From a virus: 31,813 bases of DNA. Shown in pieces: positions 1,604 through 11,005 of the stretch (its first letter is position 1; each line of letters starts with the position of its first letter). The position numbers were made by a program, and so were the translations under genes. The notes under the pieces are model-generated. The model saw nothing but the letters and a program-made list of their open reading frames with translations. It was not told where the DNA came from and searched no databases. The stretch lies in the IMG/VR virus record IMGVR_UViG_3300045988_099307, one strand, 5' to 3'.

Positions 1604-3475
1604 ATGCAACTTACACACTCTATCGCGCTTGACTTTGGACGCGATACACTCCCTATTACGATTTTTGCAAAGCAGTACGACAAGGAGAGCCGCTTTGTTG
1701 AAATTGTGCCCCTCGAGTGCGGCAAGGATTACACGCTCGAAAGCGGAGTAACTGCTCGCTTGCAGCTTACAAAGCCCGACGGTCATACCGTACTCAAAAC
1801 GGCAACGATTGCAAACGGCGTTATCAAAGTCGAGCTCACGGAGCAAACGCTCGCCGTCGCGGGTACTGCCGTTGCGGAAATCGGGCTTTACAAGGGTAAC
1901 TCCCTTTTAAGCTCGCAAATTTTCTATATTGAAATTAAGCGAGCAGCTTATAACCCCGACGCACCCGCAAGCTCCGACGAATACCCCGCGTTAATTGACG
2001 CGCTCGGCAAGGTTGAAACCTCCGTAGGCTCTGCTAATTCCGCGGCAGCGGCAGCAAACGCAGCAGCAACGAAAGCGGAAACAGCGGCAGGCGGAGCCGA
2101 TACTGCCGCGCAAAACGCGACCTCGGCAGCGTCAGCGGCTAATAATGCCGCAAGCGGTGCAAATACCGCAAAAACGAACGCAAATAACGCAGCCTCCGCA
2201 GCGAATACCGCAGCGGGAGCGGCTAACTCTGCGGCAGCAGCAGCTAACGAGGCAGCAGAGGCAGCAGAGGGCGCGGAAAACGTTAATATCTCCGCTACGC
2301 AAACGACAACGGGAGCGGACATTACCGTTACCAACCGAGAGGGAGAACAAACGACCGTACATATTGACACGCTTACAGCGGTTAATACCTGGGAGGATAT
2401 TAAAAACGCCGTCCGCCTCGGACTCGGAGAAAAACTCTTTCCCGTTGGCTACGAGTTTACCACCCTCGACGCTGATACTACGCAAAATATTATATGGGTT
2501 GTGAGGGCGCACGACCACCATACAGCGGCAAATAATAAGCTCACGCATACAATGACGCTTGAAACAAAGAACGTTTACAGCTTGTCGAGCGGGGCGCAAA
2601 AGGCGGTACAGTACGACGCGACCGAGGCTTTTTATTTTGCGGAACTCGGACTCGCGGCGGGCACTTATAACATCACGATTGCAAATCAAGCCTGGTACAC
2701 CGCCGACAACGGCAAAACGTTTCAATTTGAGCTTACAAAGGCGCTCCCCGTGGGCGGTCAGCTCGTATTTGCTATGACCTATAACGCTACCCTCGAGGGC
2801 AAAAGCGTTAAAAGCTATGCAAATAAGACTACGACAACGGCACTTGAAACCGTTACTCTTACGGAGGGCTCCGAGGGTACAAGCCTCGGTACAACGAACG
2901 GGAGCAGCCCTAACGTAAACCATATGCACCGCGCTATTTTCGGCAGCAATAACTACGCTCAATCCGCCGTCCGTCAATGGCTTAATAGCGCCGCCGTAGC
3001 GGGCTCGGTTTGGACTCCTACTAACGTATTTGACCGTCCCGCGTCCTGGGCGACAAGCTATAACGGTTTTATGCACGGTTTGCCCGCTGACTTCCTGGCG
3101 GTTGTGCAGCCCGCCGTACTTGCTTGCCGTACAAATTCGCTCTTTGAGGTTGAAAGCCTCGACGGTACGGCTTTTGCTATCAATCAGCTTTACAGCCTTA
3201 AAGCGGATAAGTTTTTCCTACTCTCCCGCCCTGAAATTTTCGGGAATTGGGACAGCGAGAGTTACAAGGACGGTACGCAGCTCGAATATTATAACGGTTT
3301 GACGGCGACCGAGCGTATCAAACGCGACGCGGCGGGTACGGCGCGTTACGCTTGGTTGCGTTCTCCTAACCCGTCCAGCGCGATCAGCGCGCGCATTGTC
3401 TACTCCTCGGGCGAAGTGACCAACGACTGTGCGTACTACGGTCACGGCGTAGCCCCCGCTTGTATAATCGCATAA
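1604..3475 (+). CDS. DGR target protein 1: receptor-binding tail protein with a BppU-N-like N-terminus, an Ala/Asn-rich coiled coil, and a C-terminal lectin-fold (DUF6273/FGE-like) domain ending in VR1
   Basis: AGGAGG RBS before the ATG at 1604. The N-terminal 110 aa resemble a baseplate upper protein N-domain. The C-terminus ...YAWLRSPNPSSAISARIVYSSGEVTNDCAYYGHGVAPACIIA is homologous to the TR with adenine-only differences. Confidence 0.9.
   Translation: MQLTHSIALDFGRDTLPITIFAKQYDKESRFVEIVPLECGKDYTLESGVTARLQLTKPDGHTVLKTATIANGVIKVELTEQTLAVAGTAVAEIGLYKGNSLLSSQIFYIEIKRAAYNPDAPASSDEYPALIDALGKVETSVGSANSAAAAANAAATKAETAAGGADTAAQNATSAASAANNAASGANTAKTNANNAASAANTAAGAANSAAAAANEAAEAAEGAENVNISATQTTTGADITVTNREGEQTTVHIDTLTAVNTWEDIKNAVRLGLGEKLFPVGYEFTTLDADTTQNIIWVVRAHDHHTAANNKLTHTMTLETKNVYSLSSGAQKAVQYDATEAFYFAELGLAAGTYNITIANQAWYTADNGKTFQFELTKALPVGGQLVFAMTYNATLEGKSVKSYANKTTTTALETVTLTEGSEGTSLGTTNGSSPNVNHMHRAIFGSNNYAQSAVRQWLNSAAVAGSVWTPTNVFDRPASWATSYNGFMHGLPADFLAVVQPAVLACRTNSLFEVESLDGTAFAINQLYSLKADKFFLLSRPEIFGNWDSESYKDGTQLEYYNGLTATERIKRDAAGTARYAWLRSPNPSSAISARIVYSSGEVTNDCAYYGHGVAPACIIA
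2032..2285 (+). repeat. Low-complexity Ala/Asn/Thr-rich segment (putative trimeric coiled-coil stalk) inside target protein 1
   Basis: Translation is SANSAAAAANAAATKAETAAGGADTAAQNATSAASAANNAASGANTAKTNANNAASAANTAAGAANSAAAAANEAAEAAEGAE. The GCN-rich DNA also produces spurious long ORFs in other frames. Confidence 0.7.
3335..3463 (+). repeat. DGR variable repeat 1 (VR1)
   Basis: Ungapped alignment to TR 3962-4090 (offset 627) gives 12 mismatches in 129 positions, all at TR adenines: 3974, 4005, 4011, 4014, 4028, 4047, 4052, 4055, 4056, 4064, 4070, 4086. Confidence 0.93.
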
Positions 3476-4178: not shown

Positions 4179-5279
4179 TTGCGGGCGACAAAGGTACCTC
4201 GCGGGGTAGTCCTTTTATATGCGTCCGCTTTTCTTATGGCATACGAGCAAGTAATTTCCTTTGATAATCTGTATAAAGGCTTAAAAGAGAGCTGCCGTAA
4301 TATCCGTTGGAAAGATAGCACCGTAGGATATGAGGGTAACGCGCTTAAAAATACCTATCGTTTGCGGCAAACGCTGCTTAACGGTACGTACAAAATAGAC
4401 CGATACCAACATTTCACGATATACGAGCCGAAACGTCGGGACATTGTAGCCACAAGGTTAAAAGACCGACAATTTCAGCGTTCGCTCTGCGACAACGGCT
4501 TTTATGAGCAGATTACAAAATCCTTTATAACAGATAATTGCGCTTGCCTCAAGGGGCGCGGCGTAGACTATACGCTAAACCGTATGACCGCACATCTGCG
4601 GCGGTATTATGCCGCGCACGGTTGCGACGGTTGGGTGCTTAAATGTGATATACGGCATTATTTCCAAAGCATACGGCACGACATAGCAAAGGCAGCAATA
4701 TGCAAGCGGGTTACAGATACTCAAATTGCGGAGCGGGCTTGCGAAATTGTGGACTCTTTCGGGGAAATCGGGTTAGGGCTCGGCTCCCAGGTATCGCAGC
4801 TTGTAGCTCTCGCCGTCCTGGACGACCTCGACCATTTCATAAAGGAGCGGTTGAGAATAAAGCATTATATCCGATATATGGACGACTTTATTTTAGTACA
4901 CGAGGACAAAGAGTATTTGCGGCAATGCAAAAAGGAAATCGAGGCGCGCCTATTCGCCCTCGGCTTACAGCTCAACGATAAAACGGCGCTTTACCCATTG
5001 CGCCAGGGAGTAAAGCTCCTACAATGGCGGTTTATCGTTACCGATACGGGCGCGATAATCCGCAAAATGGGTAAAAAGAAACAGAGCAAGCAGCGCCGCA
5101 AGCTCAAAAAGCTATACGCAAAAGAGCGCCGCGGAGAGTATGCGCCAGGGACGGCGCACGAGTCGCTCGTTTCCTGGCTTGCAAATGCCGCCCGCGGAGA
5201 TACCTACCACGAGCGGCTCAAAATGATAAATTATTTTAAGAATATGGAGGCTACATACAATGCAAGAGAATATCTATAA
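4179..5279 (+). CDS. DGR reverse transcriptase
   Basis: An IRYMDDFILV (YxDD) box and RT motifs (IYEPKRRDI, GLGLGSQVSQ) are present. A TTG start at 4179 sits 4-5 nt after AAAGGAGGA. An alternative ATG at 4236 (MAYEQVISFDNLYKGLKE) matches typical DGR RT N-termini. Confidence 0.92.
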   Translation: MRATKVPRGVVLLYASAFLMAYEQVISFDNLYKGLKESCRNIRWKDSTVGYEGNALKNTYRLRQTLLNGTYKIDRYQHFTIYEPKRRDIVATRLKDRQFQRSLCDNGFYEQITKSFITDNCACLKGRGVDYTLNRMTAHLRRYYAAHGCDGWVLKCDIRHYFQSIRHDIAKAAICKRVTDTQIAERACEIVDSFGEIGLGLGSQVSQLVALAVLDDLDHFIKERLRIKHYIRYMDDFILVHEDKEYLRQCKKEIEARLFALGLQLNDKTALYPLRQGVKLLQWRFIVTDTGAIIRKMGKKKQSKQRRKLKKLYAKERRGEYAPGTAHESLVSWLANAARGDTYHERLKMINYFKNMEATYNAREYL

Positions 5280-5655
5280 AAGACTCGCACAGGCGGAGGC
5301 AATGGCAGCGGCGCAGAAAGCGGAAACAATGGAGGTACTGCAAGCGGCATATAAGCGAGCTTGCGAGGAACTCAACGAGGAGGACGCGGCAGCGTTTGCC
5401 CGCAAAATCCGCGATAAACTCCTTAACGAAACCGATAGCCGTGTAGCTCTCGACCGCTTTAATATCAGCGTGCCGAGCGGGACCTCTTTTACCGCCTGGC
5501 TTTCGTTCTTAAAATCGCTCGGAGAAATTATTACGGGAGCCTGGGCAATATATCGCCAGGCGCTCCGCGACCTCCCCGAACAAGAGGGCTTTCCGTTTAA
5601 TGTTACTTTCCCCGCCCCTCCCGAGGTTGAGAACGACGGGACAGAGGGCGAGTAA
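5260..5655 (+). CDS. Hypothetical protein, possibly a tail-fibre assembly or chaperone-like protein
   Basis: GGAGG RBS; the gene overlaps the RT stop. The RKIRDKLLNETDSRVALDRF segment resembles tail-fibre assembly/DUF4376-type motifs, but the resemblance is weak. Confidence 0.5.
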   Translation: MQENIYKRLAQAEAMAAAQKAETMEVLQAAYKRACEELNEEDAAAFARKIRDKLLNETDSRVALDRFNISVPSGTSFTAWLSFLKSLGEIITGAWAIYRQALRDLPEQEGFPFNVTFPAPPEVENDGTEGE

Positions 5656-8074: not shown

Positions 8075-8107
8075 AAGGCGGGGGCAATAAGCCTCCGCCT
8101 TATTTTT
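8075..8107. terminator. Bidirectional terminator between convergent genes
   Basis: aaggcggggg / cctccgcctt hairpin flanked by an A-run on the left and a T-run on the right. Confidence 0.7.
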
Positions 8108-8438
8108 ATTTATAAATTTTTATGTGCATTGCTACACACAGCCCGCGCTCGGAGTTAATTATTTTTTCTACCGATACCGAGGCTTTATTATGGAGATATA
8201 AGCCCCGTATTTTGTTTAAGTCCTTATACCCTATAAAACCTATTTGCTCGTTCTTTTTAGTAAATACACCTATCGTATCGGGATAATCGGCAGTCGGCGC
8301 AGGGTGGAATAATAAATCGTCGCCCACCTTTAACCGCGCTATGTACGTTTGACGGCTCGTGCCGTTTTCGTTTGTGTATGCCGTACCCCATACGTCGCAA
8401 GAAAACTCGTCAATTACTTTTTTAGAAAACAACCCCAT
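8106..8438 (-). CDS. Stand-alone HIRAN-like domain protein (the only convincing minus-strand gene)
   Basis: The start at 8438 (MGLFSKK) lies 7 nt after GGAGG. The pattern VWGTAY...RLKVGDDLLFHP...DTIGVFTKKNEQIGFIG fits the HIRAN fold. The gene has its own promoter and terminator. Confidence 0.55.
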   Translation of the reverse strand: MGLFSKKVIDEFSCDVWGTAYTNENGTSRQTYIARLKVGDDLLFHPAPTADYPDTIGVFTKKNEQIGFIGYKDLNKIRGLYLHNKASVSVEKIINSERGLCVAMHIKIYK

Positions 8439-8452
8439 TTCCATACCTCCAT

Positions 8453-8622
8453 AAAAAAAGTGCGTGCAACTCGTCGCTGCACGCACGAAAAACGCAAGCT
8501 CCGAATTGCTACCACACTAATTCTATGTTTTACGCTATAAGACGCAAAAACGAGCCCGCATTTTTACCGAAGTAAAAAAAGCGCACTTACAGCATAAAAC
8601 AAATTATTAAATTAGTGTGGTA
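8453..8622 (-). promoter_or_regulatory. Candidate structured 5' leader / attenuator upstream of the HIRAN-like gene
   Basis: On the minus strand, a 13-nt perfect pairing (8622-8610 with 8522-8510) encloses 87 nt that include a UUCG-capped stem. This is followed by the hairpin gtgcgtgca/tgcacgcac (8486-8460) and a U7 run (8459-8453) directly abutting the RBS. Confidence 0.5.
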
Positions 8623-8627
8623 CCCTT

Positions 8628-8656
8628 ATTATATCAGAAAACCGCCGCGCTTTCAA
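8628..8656 (-). promoter_or_regulatory. Sigma70-type promoter (TTGAAA-17-TATAAT) driving the leader and HIRAN gene
   Basis: The reverse complement of 8651-8656 is ttgaaa and of 8628-8633 is tataat, with an exact 17-nt spacer. The predicted TSS falls at about 8620-8622, the first bases of the 13-nt pairing element. Confidence 0.7.
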
Positions 8657-8696
8657 TAATAATTGCAAAAAACCGCAAAAAGTTTTGAAAAAGGGC

Positions 8697-8725
8697 TTGA
8701 CAAATACGCATTAAAGGCGTATAAT
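8697..8725 (+). promoter_or_regulatory. Consensus sigma70-type promoter (TTGACA-17-TATAAT) for hicAB
   Basis: ttgaca at 8697-8702, a 17-nt spacer, tataat at 8720-8725; followed by the RBS gagaggag and the ATG at 8743. Confidence 0.8.
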
Positions 8726-8742: not shown

Positions 8743-8925
8743 ATGATACAAACGAAAAGAGCAGACCTCATAAAGCTACTCGAAAAAAACGGTTGGTACT
8801 TAAAAAGAAACGGAGGCGGGCACGACATCTACACCAACGGAAAAGAGAGCGAAACAATCCCGAGGCACAGAGAATTAAAAGAAAATCTCGCAAGGGCAAT
8901 AATTAAAAGGCGGGGGCTCAAATGA
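8743..8925 (+). CDS. hicA: HicA-family toxin (mRNA interferase)
   Basis: A 60-aa protein: LIKLLEKNGWYLKRNGGGHDIYTNGK...IPRHRELKENLARAIIKRRGL, a typical HicA sequence. Confidence 0.85.
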   Translation: MIQTKRADLIKLLEKNGWYLKRNGGGHDIYTNGKESETIPRHRELKENLARAIIKRRGLK

Positions 8926-8974
8926 GCCCCACGCCGCCCGAGCTTAATATATATTTTATTGGAGGTAACTATAT

Positions 8975-9370
8975 ATGAAAAATTCATATCCTATTTTGCT
9001 TATACCCGAGGATAAGGGCTTTACGGTTTATATTCCCGATTTTGATATTAACACACAAGGCGAGGATTTAACCGACGCTATCGAAATGGCGCGGGACGCT
9101 ATCGGCTTAATGGGTATTGATATGGAGGACGACGGAAAAGCGCTGCCTACACCCCGCAAGCTCGATACTGTTAAAACGGCGCAAGGAGAAATCGTAACGC
9201 TTGTAGACGTTGACTTTGCAGAATATCGGCGCAAAAACGAAATGAGAGTAGTTAAGAAAAATTGCACTCTCCCGAGTTGGCTTTGCTATGCGGCAGAAAA
9301 GGCAAATATTAACTTTTCCCAGGCTTTACAAGAGGCACTCAAACGGGAATTGAAAATAACAGACAAATAA
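8975..9370 (+). CDS. hicB: HicB-family antitoxin with a C-terminal RHH-like DNA-binding tail
   Basis: YPILLIPEDKGFTVYIPDFDINTQGEDLTDAIEMARDAI is a HicB N-domain. The gene is adjacent to hicA and has a GGAGG RBS. Confidence 0.8.
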   Translation: MKNSYPILLIPEDKGFTVYIPDFDINTQGEDLTDAIEMARDAIGLMGIDMEDDGKALPTPRKLDTVKTAQGEIVTLVDVDFAEYRRKNEMRVVKKNCTLPSWLCYAAEKANINFSQALQEALKRELKITDK

Positions 9371-9426: not shown

Positions 9427-9429
9427 ATG

Positions 9430-9453
9430 ATAAAACGGAGTGATTTTATTATG
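9430..9453 (+). repeat. Gene-junction repeat, copy A (ataaaacggagtgattttAttatg)
   Basis: Shares ataaaacggagtgatttt and ttatg with copies B and C, and ends in the start codon of the transposase. Confidence 0.85.
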
Positions 9454-10497
9454 GGTACTTGCTACAACCACCTTACATTTACAGACCGTCTACAAATCGA
9501 GGCTTGGCAAAAAGCGGGCATAAGCAAGGCGCAAATGGCGGAGCTGCTCGGCGTGCATTTAAGCACTATATATCGGGAATTAAAGCGCGGAGTATATACA
9601 CGCCTCAACAGCGACTTAACCGAGGAGGAGCGATACAGCCCCGATATAGCCGAGGAGAAATACAGAGAAAACCTCAAGGCAAAGGGAGCAGGACTCAAAA
9701 TAGACCACGACCACGAATACGCTACATATCTTGAATACAAAGTATCGGCAGAAAAATACGCCCCTGGTGCTGTCCTCGGCGAAATAAAAAGAAAAGGTAT
9801 AGAATTTAATACCACCATTTCAAAAACGACTTTTTACCGATATATCGAGGACGGCGTTTTTCTCACGATAACAAACAAAGACCTACCCGTTAAATGCAAC
9901 AAAGACAAGCAGAAATACGATAGAGTAAAACCGAACAGGGCACCCGCGGGTAAAAGCATTGAAAAGCGCCCCGAGGAAGTCGCGGAGCGCGATACTTTCG
10001 GTCATTGGGAAATGGATTGCGTCGTAGGTAAAAAAGGCACAAAGAAAACTTTTCTTGTCCTTACCGAAAGATACAGCCGCTACGAGATTATCCGCATTAT
10101 GAAAGACCATACCGCCGCAAGTGTAATAAAAGCTCTTAACGGAATAGAGCGGAGCTACGGAGCGGGCTTGTTCTCAAAGGTTTTTCAAACTATAACCGTA
10201 GACAACGGCTCGGAATTTTCCGACTATGAGGGACTCGAGCAGAGCTGCCGCAAAAATGACTCACGCACAACGGTTTATTATTGCCACCCGTACAGCTCGT
10301 ACGAGCGCGGCTCAAATGAAAATCAAAATAAAATGGTGCGTCGTCATTATCCGAAAGGTATTAGCCTTGATAAAGTTACCCCCGCAGATACCCGAAAACT
10401 CGAAAAATGGATTAACGACTATCCGCGGGGAATTTTTGATTATTACAGCTCTGCGGACATATACGAGGCTTGCATAAACAGCATATTAGCCGCTTAA
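9451..10497 (+). CDS. IS30-family DDE transposase/integrase
   Basis: N-terminal HTH (LTFTDRLQIEAWQKAGISKAQMAELLGVHLSTIYRELKRG) and a DDE core (HWEMDCV...ITVDNGSEFS...YERGSNENQNKMVRR). The start at 9451 (MGTCYNHL) follows the junction repeat. Confidence 0.85.
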   Translation: MGTCYNHLTFTDRLQIEAWQKAGISKAQMAELLGVHLSTIYRELKRGVYTRLNSDLTEEERYSPDIAEEKYRENLKAKGAGLKIDHDHEYATYLEYKVSAEKYAPGAVLGEIKRKGIEFNTTISKTTFYRYIEDGVFLTITNKDLPVKCNKDKQKYDRVKPNRAPAGKSIEKRPEEVAERDTFGHWEMDCVVGKKGTKKTFLVLTERYSRYEIIRIMKDHTAASVIKALNGIERSYGAGLFSKVFQTITVDNGSEFSDYEGLEQSCRKNDSRTTVYYCHPYSSYERGSNENQNKMVRRHYPKGISLDKVTPADTRKLEKWINDYPRGIFDYYSSADIYEACINSILAA

Positions 10498-10541
10498 AGC
10501 ACGTCAAAATAAATTTTTTTGCACTTTTTCGCATTTACCCC

Positions 10542-10570
10542 TTGACTTTTCAGTTAAAAAGTTTTACAAT
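10542..10570 (+). promoter_or_regulatory. Promoter-like element (TTGACT-17-TACAAT)
   Basis: ttgact at 10542-10547, a 17-nt spacer, tacaat at 10565-10570. It directly abuts the left arm of the following hairpin. Confidence 0.45.
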
Positions 10571-10612
10571 AAGTGCGAAAGGTTTTTAAGACCTTACCGC
10601 ACTTATTTTTTT
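10571..10612 (+). terminator. Rho-independent terminator downstream of the transposase
   Basis: aagtgcg (10571-10577) pairs with cgcactt (10598-10604), with an inner aaggt/acctt stem, followed by T7. Confidence 0.7.
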
Positions 10613-10691: not shown

Positions 10692-10715
10692 AGAGGGCGG
10701 GCGCGCCCGCCCTCT
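10692..10715. promoter_or_regulatory. Perfect 24-bp GC-rich palindrome (candidate operator or recombination site)
   Basis: agagggcgggcg|cgcccgccctct has perfect dyad symmetry. It lies 33 nt upstream of the 10748 start, and no T-run follows on either strand. Confidence 0.5.
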
Positions 10716-10747
10716 GCTCTCAAAACAAAATGAAAGGAGTAAACGTA

Positions 10748-11005
10748 ATGACGTGCCGATACCTCACATACGAGGACAGAAAGAGTCTCGAGGCTCTTTA
10801 CGCCGACAGCGTAAGCCTTACCGACATTGCCTCCGAGCTCGGAGTACACCTTGCCACCGTTTACAGAGAACTAACGCGCGGCGGCACGGGCGAACTTGAC
10901 AAAAACGGGCGTAGCGGTTACAGCGCCGCACTCGGTCAAAAGCGCGTTAGCGAGAATTTCAAACGCCGCGGCAGACGAGCGGCAAATAATAATAAAACGG
11001 AGTGA
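10748..11005 (+). CDS. Stand-alone IS30-type HTH (HTH_38-like) DNA-binding protein
   Basis: The start at 10748 lies 8 nt after AAAGGAG. CRYLTYEDRKSLEALYADSVSLTDIASELGVHLATVYRELTRG is paralogous to the transposase N-terminus. There is no DDE domain. Confidence 0.7.
   Translation: MTCRYLTYEDRKSLEALYADSVSLTDIASELGVHLATVYRELTRGGTGELDKNGRSGYSAALGQKRVSENFKRRGRRAANNNKTE

Follow-up and report, generated by a model that had tools for sequence, protein, structure and literature searches.

The minus strand of one virus genome (IMG/VR record IMGVR_UViG_3300045988_099307) raises the question of what is encoded between a strong promoter and the ribosome binding site (RBS) of a small gene, and of how this segment affects the gene that follows it. 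The stretch of DNA analyzed here, referred to as the window, is 31,813 nucleotides long, and the segment in question lies at positions 8453–8656. A first, sequence-only reading had interpreted it as a riboswitch-like structured leader with a terminator abutting the RBS of a HIRAN-like gene. Comparison with relatives of the window identifies a genuine, previously uncatalogued RNA family, the terminator-coupled leader of a prophage accessory-gene cassette.

The Promoter and the Boundaries of the RNA

The promoter of the RNA (8628–8656, minus strand) consists of a −35 box, TTGAAA (8656–8651), a 17-nt spacer, and an extended −10 box, TGATATAAT (8636–8628), and matches the consensus at 11 of 12 positions, in addition to the TG extension. 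This is the near-consensus TTGAAA-17-TATAAT promoter (8656–8628) already recognized from the sequence alone, together with a transcript start at about 8621. The start is predicted here at the same point (8621–8623), given that the TGnTATAAT box is found 6–8 nt upstream of the invariant 5′ end of the RNA, ACCACAC, in all of the sequence types (at least nine). The rest of the region upstream of the RNA diverges between the types, and the extended −10 box is kept.

The 182-nt stretch that includes the RNA has a minimum free energy of −70.7 kcal/mol, compared with −44.8 ± 3.7 kcal/mol for 200 dinucleotide shuffles (z = −6.9), none of which folds as well (0/200). Conservation sets in at the predicted start site and does not extend beyond the U-tract of the terminator. 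When the window is compared with one of its relatives (L004), for example, identity is 94.7% in the RNA, 60% on the promoter side, and 72% in the coding sequence. In sequence comparisons, the RNA is an island of conservation between diverging flanks. Its predicted length is approximately 170 nt, divided into a 5′ rod, a 23-nt linker, and the terminator.

The Rod Domain and Its Covariation

The 5′ rod (approximately 112–114 nt) is composed of helix P1 (14 bp), an A/U hinge, helix P2 (20 bp), and a UUCG-capped helix, P3, all on the minus strand. The 5′ strand of P1, UACCACACUAAUUU (8609–8622), in which ACCACAC is invariant in all types, pairs with the 3′ strand, GAAUUAGUGUGGUA (8510–8523). The perfect 13-nt closing helix with 8522–8510 described in the sequence-only reading is present in all its pairs, and its true length is 14 bp (8622–8609 with 8523–8510). 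Eight of the pairs are invariant, as is the base of the helix, CCACAC/GUGUGG, across the types, and three pairs have compensatory changes from U-A to A-U. Covariation of this helix among homologues had been set beforehand as one test of the structure, and P1 does covary.

The hinge (8602–8608) is an asymmetric, A/U-rich internal loop, which throughout the types has 5–9 nt in its 5′ strand and 0–4 nt in its 3′ strand. Beyond it, the 5′ strand of P2 (8581–8601) pairs with 8545–8526, a 3′ strand (8526–8545) supported by covariation, and the helix encloses both P3 and a 15-nt unpaired segment. P3 (8561–8578) is a hairpin formed by a U-run and an A-run under a UUCG cap. The UUCG-capped AU stem (8578–8561) previously noted within a domain of 87 nt is therefore real, but the loose loop implied for this domain is not, and the rod is nearly continuous, because the 20-bp P2 sits within the closing helix.

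The same architecture emerges from the single-sequence folds of every type. A covariance model was built from two types and used to align the remaining copies, which score 71–169 bits on the promoter strand, against 16–40 bits on the opposite one; each locus has a single copy. A MAFFT-only alignment misaligned P2, and RNAalifold missed this helix, so the alignment based on the covariance model was used instead. In this alignment, standard pairs account for 95.8% of the cells of P1, P2, and P3, a value inflated somewhat by the fitting of the alignment to the structure, with which the independent single-sequence folds agree. Compensatory double changes are found in 21 of the 41 pairs. They affect 11 of 15 pairs in P2 (helix 3), where 98.6% of the cells are paired, and 4 of 7 pairs in P3 (helix 4). 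The sequence of P2 is wholly different between the types, and its pairing is always kept. None of 500 shuffles reaches any of the five measures of covariation applied to the rod, and slid controls pair at 38–54%. The G·U cells of the rod alignment outnumber the A·C cells by 92 to 34, and the molecule under selection is therefore the minus-strand RNA, not duplex DNA. This body of comparative evidence identifies a conserved structured RNA, the helices of which are backed by covariation in the homologues.

The Linker, the Apical Segment, and a Putative Pseudoknot

Two further segments are nearly invariant in sequence across the types, the apical segment, AAAAAUGCGGGCUCGUUUUUGC (8544–8565, minus strand), and the 23-nt linker, GCAAUUCGGAGCUUGCGUUUUUC (8487–8509, minus strand). 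They are complementary to each other in 12 of 12 types, through 14 contiguous pairs and a 4-bp helix. The core of the apical segment, GCGGGCUC (8559–8552), belongs to the putative 5′ strand, and GAGCUUGC (8501–8494) and a U-run (8492–8488) in the linker provide the putative 3′ strand. The predicted stability of this duplex ranges from −17 to −25 kcal/mol in the 12 types (z between −4.7 and −6.9 relative to shuffled linkers), and at most 1 of 500 shuffles does equally well in any type. The values for the window are −23.5 kcal/mol and z = −6.2, with 0/500 shuffles. The pairing would constitute a pseudoknot, given that the apical strand lies inside P1 and P2.

Natural variants never break the pairing of the core. 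One of its pairs runs through C-G, U·G, and U-A, and changes from C to U opposite a G have occurred twice (L022 and L056). The apical core differs in just one lineage (L156 and L158), which has GACU in place of GGCU in the apical segment together with AGUC in place of AGCU in the linker, a co-change that represents a single lineage and requires a one-base realignment. The terminator arm of this lineage carries GACU, and that of the B–E and L057 types, AGCU. In the column-wise analysis, 93.5% of the cells of the core are paired and 195 of 500 shuffles are as good, a non-significant result due to the near invariance of both strands. The complementarity itself indicates that the linker and the apical loop are likely to form a pseudoknot. 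This would need a 180° fold-back of the rod at the A/U hinge, a plausible movement that the similar lengths of P1 and P2 (14 and 20 bp) would allow.

The Terminator and a Candidate Antiterminator

The linker is followed by a hairpin (8453–8486, minus strand) with an 11-bp stem and a 5-nt loop (8486–8460), and a run of seven uridines (8459–8453). The stem has seven G-C pairs and a predicted stability of −18 to −23 kcal/mol. It is paired in 97.5% of the alignment cells, with compensatory double changes in four pairs, and none of 500 shuffles performs as well. A G+C-rich hairpin, a U-tract, and the conservation of the structure together define this element as a predicted intrinsic terminator. The sequence-only reading had the location and the U-run right, but gave the stem 9 bp rather than 11. 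Its observation that the U-run ends 2 nt before the GGAGG of the RBS (8450–8446) is correct.

That reading had also reported no convincing antiterminator. A candidate does exist, in that the linker bases of the putative pseudoknot are also able to pair with the 5′ arm of the terminator, with predicted values of −8 to −13.6 kcal/mol in most types, but covariation gives it no backing (85% of the cells paired, and 69 of 500 shuffles as good). In the window, this pairing is weak (−9 to −11 kcal/mol, z about −1), and in type H (L056) it is nearly absent (−2.1 kcal/mol). The pseudoknot is predicted to be much more stable than the candidate antiterminator, and because it outweighs this alternative by far, the switch may never flip, which would make the element a constitutive attenuator or the gene of a small RNA (sRNA).

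Two other arrangements were considered and rejected. A strand swap between the arms of P1 and the terminator, which have CAC/GUG-rich stems in common, would yield −4 to −11.5 kcal/mol, against approximately −20 kcal/mol for the native helices. A leader peptide initiated through the Shine–Dalgarno-like GGAG of the linker would have its GUG or AUG at a distance of 12–13 nt, and one copy (L026) has no start codon, and the reading frame is not conserved.

The Gene behind the Terminator

The gene gated by this leader (8106–8450, minus strand, from the GGAGG at 8450–8446 to the stop at 8106) encodes a protein of 110 amino acids with a predicted HIRAN fold. Its start codon is likely the ATG at 8438, located 7 nt past the GGAGG and opening the protein with MGLFSKK; the ATG at 8444 and the GTG at 8486, which begins the mechanically called open reading frame, are less likely. 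There is no space for a promoter of its own between the terminator and the RBS. With the U-tract touching the RBS, transcription could therefore reach the gene only by read-through.

The Pfam HIRAN model (PF08797) gives the window protein 22.1 bits, which is under the cut-off of 24.7 bits, and gives a membrane-anchored HIRAN paralogue 28.5 bits. The AlphaFold2 model of the window protein has a pLDDT of 90.5, and a Foldseek search with it recovers 3k2y and the HIRAN structures of HLTF (TM 0.57–0.68). The modeled structure is that of a HIRAN fold. The protein has 61 homologues in the protein collection.

The gene behind the RNA varies, and may encode the HIRAN protein, a membrane-anchored HIRAN protein (L016–L018, L007, L028, and L156), or the same anchor fused to a cysteine-rich domain. 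The RNA is the same regardless of the gene that follows it, and it is never found without a gene abutting the terminator, the RBS of which lies 2–13 nt past the U-tract in all copies, whichever gene this may be. Homologous proteins are also found without the RNA (L027 and L030). The nearest described relative of this cargo is thaL, the gene of a transmembrane HIRAN protein in a pneumococcal prophage (PMC12637031). Like the RNA-linked variants, thaL is an accessory gene, in this case of the lysogeny module, and encodes a membrane-anchored HIRAN protein; the passage on thaL mentions no leader RNA, and the protein of the window has no membrane anchor (PMC12637031). In the literature on HIRAN in connection with prophages or riboswitches, the annotation of thaL was the only record found.

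Distribution of the RNA and Searches for Known Families

A total of 56 copies of the RNA are available, in at least nine sequence types. The first scans, based on proteins and DNA patterns in IMG/VR, the GTDB genomes, and metagenomes, recovered 54 copies, 35 of them distinct, and L156 and L158 were added later. The copies come from the human gut and the rumen, and from metagenome-assembled genomes named Oscillibacter, Anaerotruncus, Ruminococcus, Ruminococcaceae, and Clostridia. The carriers of the RNA are Oscillospiraceae prophages of the gut and rumen, and the motif is confined to one phage lineage.

The region has no blastn match among the GenBank phages. Rfam 15 (4227 models, including all the riboswitch classes, the T-box, C4, 6S, and Y RNA) yields no match to the RNA, with nothing at the gathering score in the whole window and no hit at E ≤ 10 over 8453–8623 on the minus strand. 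The only overlapping match, to TeloSII_ncR43, is on the plus strand and has 17 bits (gathering score, 298). The initial impression that the sequence belongs to no recognized riboswitch class is upheld by this outcome of 0/4227 families. A resemblance to the T-box (AAUUAGUGUGGUA compared with AAUUAGGGUGGUA) was set aside, as its AAUUAG part is found only in the type of the window and the T-box model has no hit. Elsewhere in the window, ARAGORN reports a doubtful tRNA.

The Accessory-Gene Cassette and Its Surroundings

The lysis genes lie on one side of the cassette and a divergent operon on the other; the operon closes with the gene of an IS30-family transposase, after which no other gene precedes the host DNA. 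In the window, a divergent consensus promoter outside the RNA (TTGACA-17-TATAAT, 8697–8725, plus strand) would drive hicA (8743–8925), hicB (8975–9370), and the transposase gene (9427–10497), all on the plus strand, with hicAB in place of three small genes of the divergent operon. Most of the RNA-bearing relatives have no hicAB.

Of 40 further phage loci that share the divergent operon, 38 lack the RNA and have something else in the slot examined, and the RNA and the accessory gene thus come and go as a single cassette. In a related phage (L117), the slot is occupied by another cassette, which has no more than a promoter, a short hairpin resembling a terminator, and an RBS.

A 15-nt motif, present in the window as a degenerate copy, TTTGCGGTTTTTTGC (8661–8675, minus strand), has an inverted partner just past the transposase gene (10518–10532). 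The motif lies 38–52 nt upstream of the RNA start, beside the −35 box of the RNA promoter. The inverted pair is found at approximately −50 and −1860 relative to the 5′ end of the RNA in 10 of 13 loci, and the remaining three have a single copy. The motif is likely to be a transposase-binding inverted repeat.

A Proposed Mechanism and Its Rivals

The structured 5′ leader may well be a transcription attenuator, previously uncatalogued, of a prophage accessory-gene (“moron”) cassette. Under this reading, the RNA would start at about 8621, from the conserved extended −10 promoter, and the rod would fold. The linker would by default pair with the apical loop as a pseudoknot, with the rod folded back at the hinge, and a linker held in this way would leave the terminator free to form. 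The default output would be a stable, doubly capped RNA of approximately 170 nt, and little mRNA of the accessory gene. A factor (a protein, an RNA, or a small molecule) that acts on the apical loop or the linker would free the linker to pair with the 5′ arm of the terminator, and the RNA polymerase would then read into the gene; read-through would otherwise occur by leakage. A more ambitious and unlikely version of this reading is that the leader represents a new class of RNA sensor, in which a specific signal of cellular or phage origin, such as a small molecule, a protein, or the nucleic acid of a superinfecting relative, opens the pseudoknot and turns on the HIRAN proteins. If this were true, the cassette would be a conditional exclusion or defense module gated at transcription termination, and the proteins switched on would be prophage-encoded, often membrane-anchored, and DNA-end-binding.

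Part of the same evidence would be accommodated by a stand-alone, trans-acting phage sRNA of approximately 170 nt, with a target in the host or the phage, and with the downstream gene expressed by leaky read-through, a possibility that is improbable and still deserves consideration. The RNA is served by a strong promoter of its own and by a strong terminator, the 5′-terminal helix and the 3′ hairpin would protect its ends, and its order of 5′ stem, conserved middle, and terminator is that of a trans-acting sRNA. The conservation of the apical loop and the linker far exceeds that needed for their mutual pairing, which suggests a third partner, and the RNA is identical whatever gene follows. Despite this, there is no conserved target within the phage genome, no pairing around the start of translation downstream, where a c4-like interaction scores z = −1.6 to +0.5, and no copy of the RNA without a gene abutting its terminator; the would-be seed is, moreover, predicted to be sequestered in the pseudoknot. 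One potential phage target (17184–17197), a perfect 14-nt match to positions 70–83 of the RNA with a naive expectation of approximately 0.04, carries mutations in L085 and has been replaced in L092, both of which carry the same RNA, and the recurrent 11–12-mers considered as trans targets are explained by relatedness. A passive element, such as a 5′ stabilizer or a site for RNase III, with the terminator setting a low, fixed level of expression, is also doubtful. The position of P1 at the very 5′ end, the near-perfect 20-bp duplex of P2 maintained by compensatory change, the predominance of the pseudoknot over the antiterminator in predicted stability, and the simple cassette of L117 all agree with such a role, but it leaves unexplained approximately 45 nearly invariant unpaired nucleotides and the linker–loop complementarity of all types.

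A true metabolite or second-messenger riboswitch, in which a ligand sets the balance between the pseudoknot of the aptamer and the antiterminator, is rather unlikely. The layout is that of a riboswitch, with a promoter-proximal structured domain, a P1, a pseudoknot strand, and a terminator directly before the RBS, and the structured domain is supported by covariation (21 of 41 pairs, 0/500 shuffles). The conserved nucleotides concentrate in the loop and the linker, the stems covary, and the motif is an orphan, absent from Rfam. The genes that follow the RNA copies, however, encode prophage accessory proteins that replace one another and share no metabolic theme, and do not form a coherent, ligand-related set. 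Aptamers do not typically contain a perfect rod of 34 bp, the motif is limited to a single lineage of phages, no candidate ligand has emerged, and covariation does not support the antiterminator. The original interpretation of the locus as a riboswitch or attenuator is sustained, then, in so far as it refers to a structured attenuator leader, but not as a riboswitch in the strict sense, given the swappable genes and the atypical helices. It is highly improbable that the RNA is the antitoxin or partner of the protein in a pair similar to the type III toxin–antitoxin systems, with the terminator setting the ratio of RNA to protein. The order of promoter, structured RNA, terminator, and small protein gene is the same, and the locus adjoins the hicAB toxin–antitoxin genes in a prophage accessory region, but the RNA contains no tandem repeats (0 rows from Tandem Repeats Finder) or direct repeats. 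The protein has a HIRAN fold, not that of ToxN/AbiQ, three different proteins follow the same RNA type, homologues occur without the RNA in L027 and L030, and PADLOC returns no match. An element that acts at the level of the DNA, with the 13-bp repeat as an operator pair (bound by HicB, for example) or as the end or recombination site of an IS30-like module, can be virtually discounted. The inverted-repeat motif of the IS30 type 38–52 nt upstream of the RNA start and the invariance of the CCACAC/GUGUGG base of P1 would fit this idea. Against it, the inner helices covary with wholly different sequences, the excess of G·U (92 against 34 A·C) is strand-specific, the conserved stretch runs from the transcription start to the U-tract of the terminator, and the transposase motif is a different sequence that lies outside the RNA. 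An operator pair for HicB was rejected, given that most of the RNA-bearing relatives lack hicAB.

Comparison with Known Systems

The riboswitch classes based on pseudoknots, such as ZTP, preQ1, and SAM-II/V, and the terminator-type leaders of the Firmicutes are the closest in layout to the attenuator proposed here. Terminator-type riboswitches and attenuators likewise have a promoter-proximal domain closed by P1 and a terminator right before the RBS, and their 3′ strand pairs either with the domain, as a pseudoknot, or with the 5′ arm of the terminator, as would the candidate in the present case. They differ from the RNA of the window in its rod of 34 bp, its swappable genes, and the absence of an Rfam match at E ≤ 10.

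In ToxIN, CptIN, and TenpIN, the antitoxin RNA is made up of tandem direct repeats, and the toxin has the ToxN/AbiQ endoribonuclease fold. Loci of the ToxIN type share the sequence of promoter, structured RNA, terminator, and small protein gene, as well as the phage or defense setting, but the window has an RNA without tandem repeats and a HIRAN-fold protein, and the two are not specifically paired. The c4 RNA of P1 and P7 and the CI RNA of P4 are phage immunity RNAs encoded in leaders, and form the C4 family of Rfam. They are likewise small structured RNAs derived from the 5′ leader of an operon expressed by the prophage. The RNA of the window, in contrast, has no match to the Rfam C4 model, and is complementary neither to the region of the downstream translation start nor to any conserved site elsewhere.

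Other phage leaders include the put and EAR RNAs, of which the first is from HK022, which mediate processive antitermination, and the lambda N leader and sib, which are leader hairpins for RNase III. These are also structured RNAs that follow a phage promoter upstream of a terminator, with long, perfect duplexes. They have no similarity to the RNA of the window in sequence or model, and only a single short gene lies downstream of the latter; they are also not known to contain conserved unpaired segments or complementarity between a loop and a linker, both of which are found here.

Significance and Natural Deletion Variants

To our knowledge, hardly any structured regulatory RNAs have been described in temperate phages of the dominant gut Clostridia, and the present family adds to them a phage RNA with solid comparative support and defined boundaries. 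It also represents a plug-in cassette, re-used within the lineage, in which one of several accessory genes is placed behind a promoter, a leader, and a terminator. A gate responsive to a signal would show how prophages silence costly exclusion or defense proteins until the need for them arises. Without such a response, the RNA is still a strongly selected attenuator or sRNA with a likely pseudoknot, and merits an entry in Rfam.

Natural deletions have affected the RNA in three variants (L001, L036, and L065). Two of these, L036 and L065, have lost parts of the apical region. In L001, the deletion extends from P2 to the terminator, and the promoter-proximal part of the leader is fused to the RBS of a gene that is 100% identical, as would be expected of a derepressed variant.

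The Transposase Module and Its Inverted Motif

The integration enzyme of this phage lineage seems to be an IS30-family transposase of the DDE type, because in the related prophages the transposase gene is always the final phage gene, with host DNA lying directly beyond it. In the window, this gene (9427-10497, plus strand) encodes a protein of 356 aa that matches NF033563 with 226 bits, and its counterparts are located at 5970-7010 in L071 and 5986-7023 in L074, two of the related phage or prophage loci compared here. The module formed by the transposase and the adjacent small genes is flanked on both sides by an inverted pair of a 15-nt motif, TTTGCACTTTTTCGC, which was found in 10 of the 13 related loci examined. 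One copy lies on the minus strand at 8661-8675, 38-52 nt upstream of the start of the structured leader RNA, and the other lies on the plus strand at 10518-10532, a short way beyond the transposase stop codon. Conservation stops at ...CCCCTTGACTTTTCA (window position 10551), past which the window, L071, and L074 diverge from one another. A third inverted-repeat-like copy, found 17 nt past the end of the conserved sequence (10568-10580), may reflect the joining of the element ends.

The small genes of the module are themselves variable. The hicA and hicB genes of the window (8743-9370, plus strand) stand where most of the relatives have three small genes, encoding proteins of 43-45 aa, 55 aa, and 62 aa (RHH-like), as at 7088-7688 in L071 and 7089-7684 in L074. 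The divergent consensus promoter contains a palindrome within its spacer, and this palindrome differs between the hicAB and small-gene variants.

Cassettes and Deletions in the Adjacent Slot

The slot beside this divergent operon, in which the RNA and its accessory gene sit as a cassette, is also occupied by other sequences. Downstream of the RNA in L012 and L049, the HIRAN domain is replaced, behind the same N-terminal membrane anchor, by a Cys-rich domain of ~55 aa with the pattern VYHxxxxC...RRCxxC, for which no match was found in Pfam, NCBIfam, or PADLOC. In related phages that lack the RNA (L117, L119, L120, L143-L154, and L162), different cassettes fill the same slot, upstream of the 43-45 aa gene. 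One of these combines a promoter and an RBS with a short terminator-like hairpin, and another has a consensus promoter and a leader of ~180 nt, followed by an XRE-type HTH gene.

Internally deleted forms of the RNA also occur naturally. In L001 (1971-2040), the segment from helix P2 through the terminator has been lost by way of microhomology (GCGC/GCAC plus a T-run), while the HIRAN gene is retained and identical. The RNAs of L036 (235-327) and L065 (846-969) lack apical parts, and retain helix P1, the linker, and the terminator.

At the other end of the HIRAN gene, a strong hairpin of 11 pairs, eight of them G-C (8075-8101), with tails that are T-rich on the plus strand, separates this gene from a converging late gene of 176 aa, and acts as the common stop of both transcription units.

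Genome Layout and Other Features

The gene order of the window reads like that of one complete, circularly permuted phage genome of ~32 kb, with the tail-fibre and lysis genes at the start, the early genes after the transposase, from ~10.7 kb, and the terminase, portal, and tail genes extending to the end. Within the 623-aa tail-fibre ORF, ARAGORN called a 92-nt tRNA-Thr (2827-2918, minus strand), which is probably a false positive, given that the Rfam tRNA model had no match there. Also among the tail-fibre genes, a reverse transcriptase (RVT_1) adjoins a Phage_tail_APC gene (4179-5655, plus strand) in what looks like a diversity-generating retroelement, kept in the relatives (L071, 11053-12613; L074, 10782-12189). 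A perfect 24-bp palindrome, AGAGGGCGGGCGCGCCCGCCCTCT (10692-10715), found in L017 too, lies a short way upstream of a 91-aa gene with only an HTH_38 domain (10730-11005).
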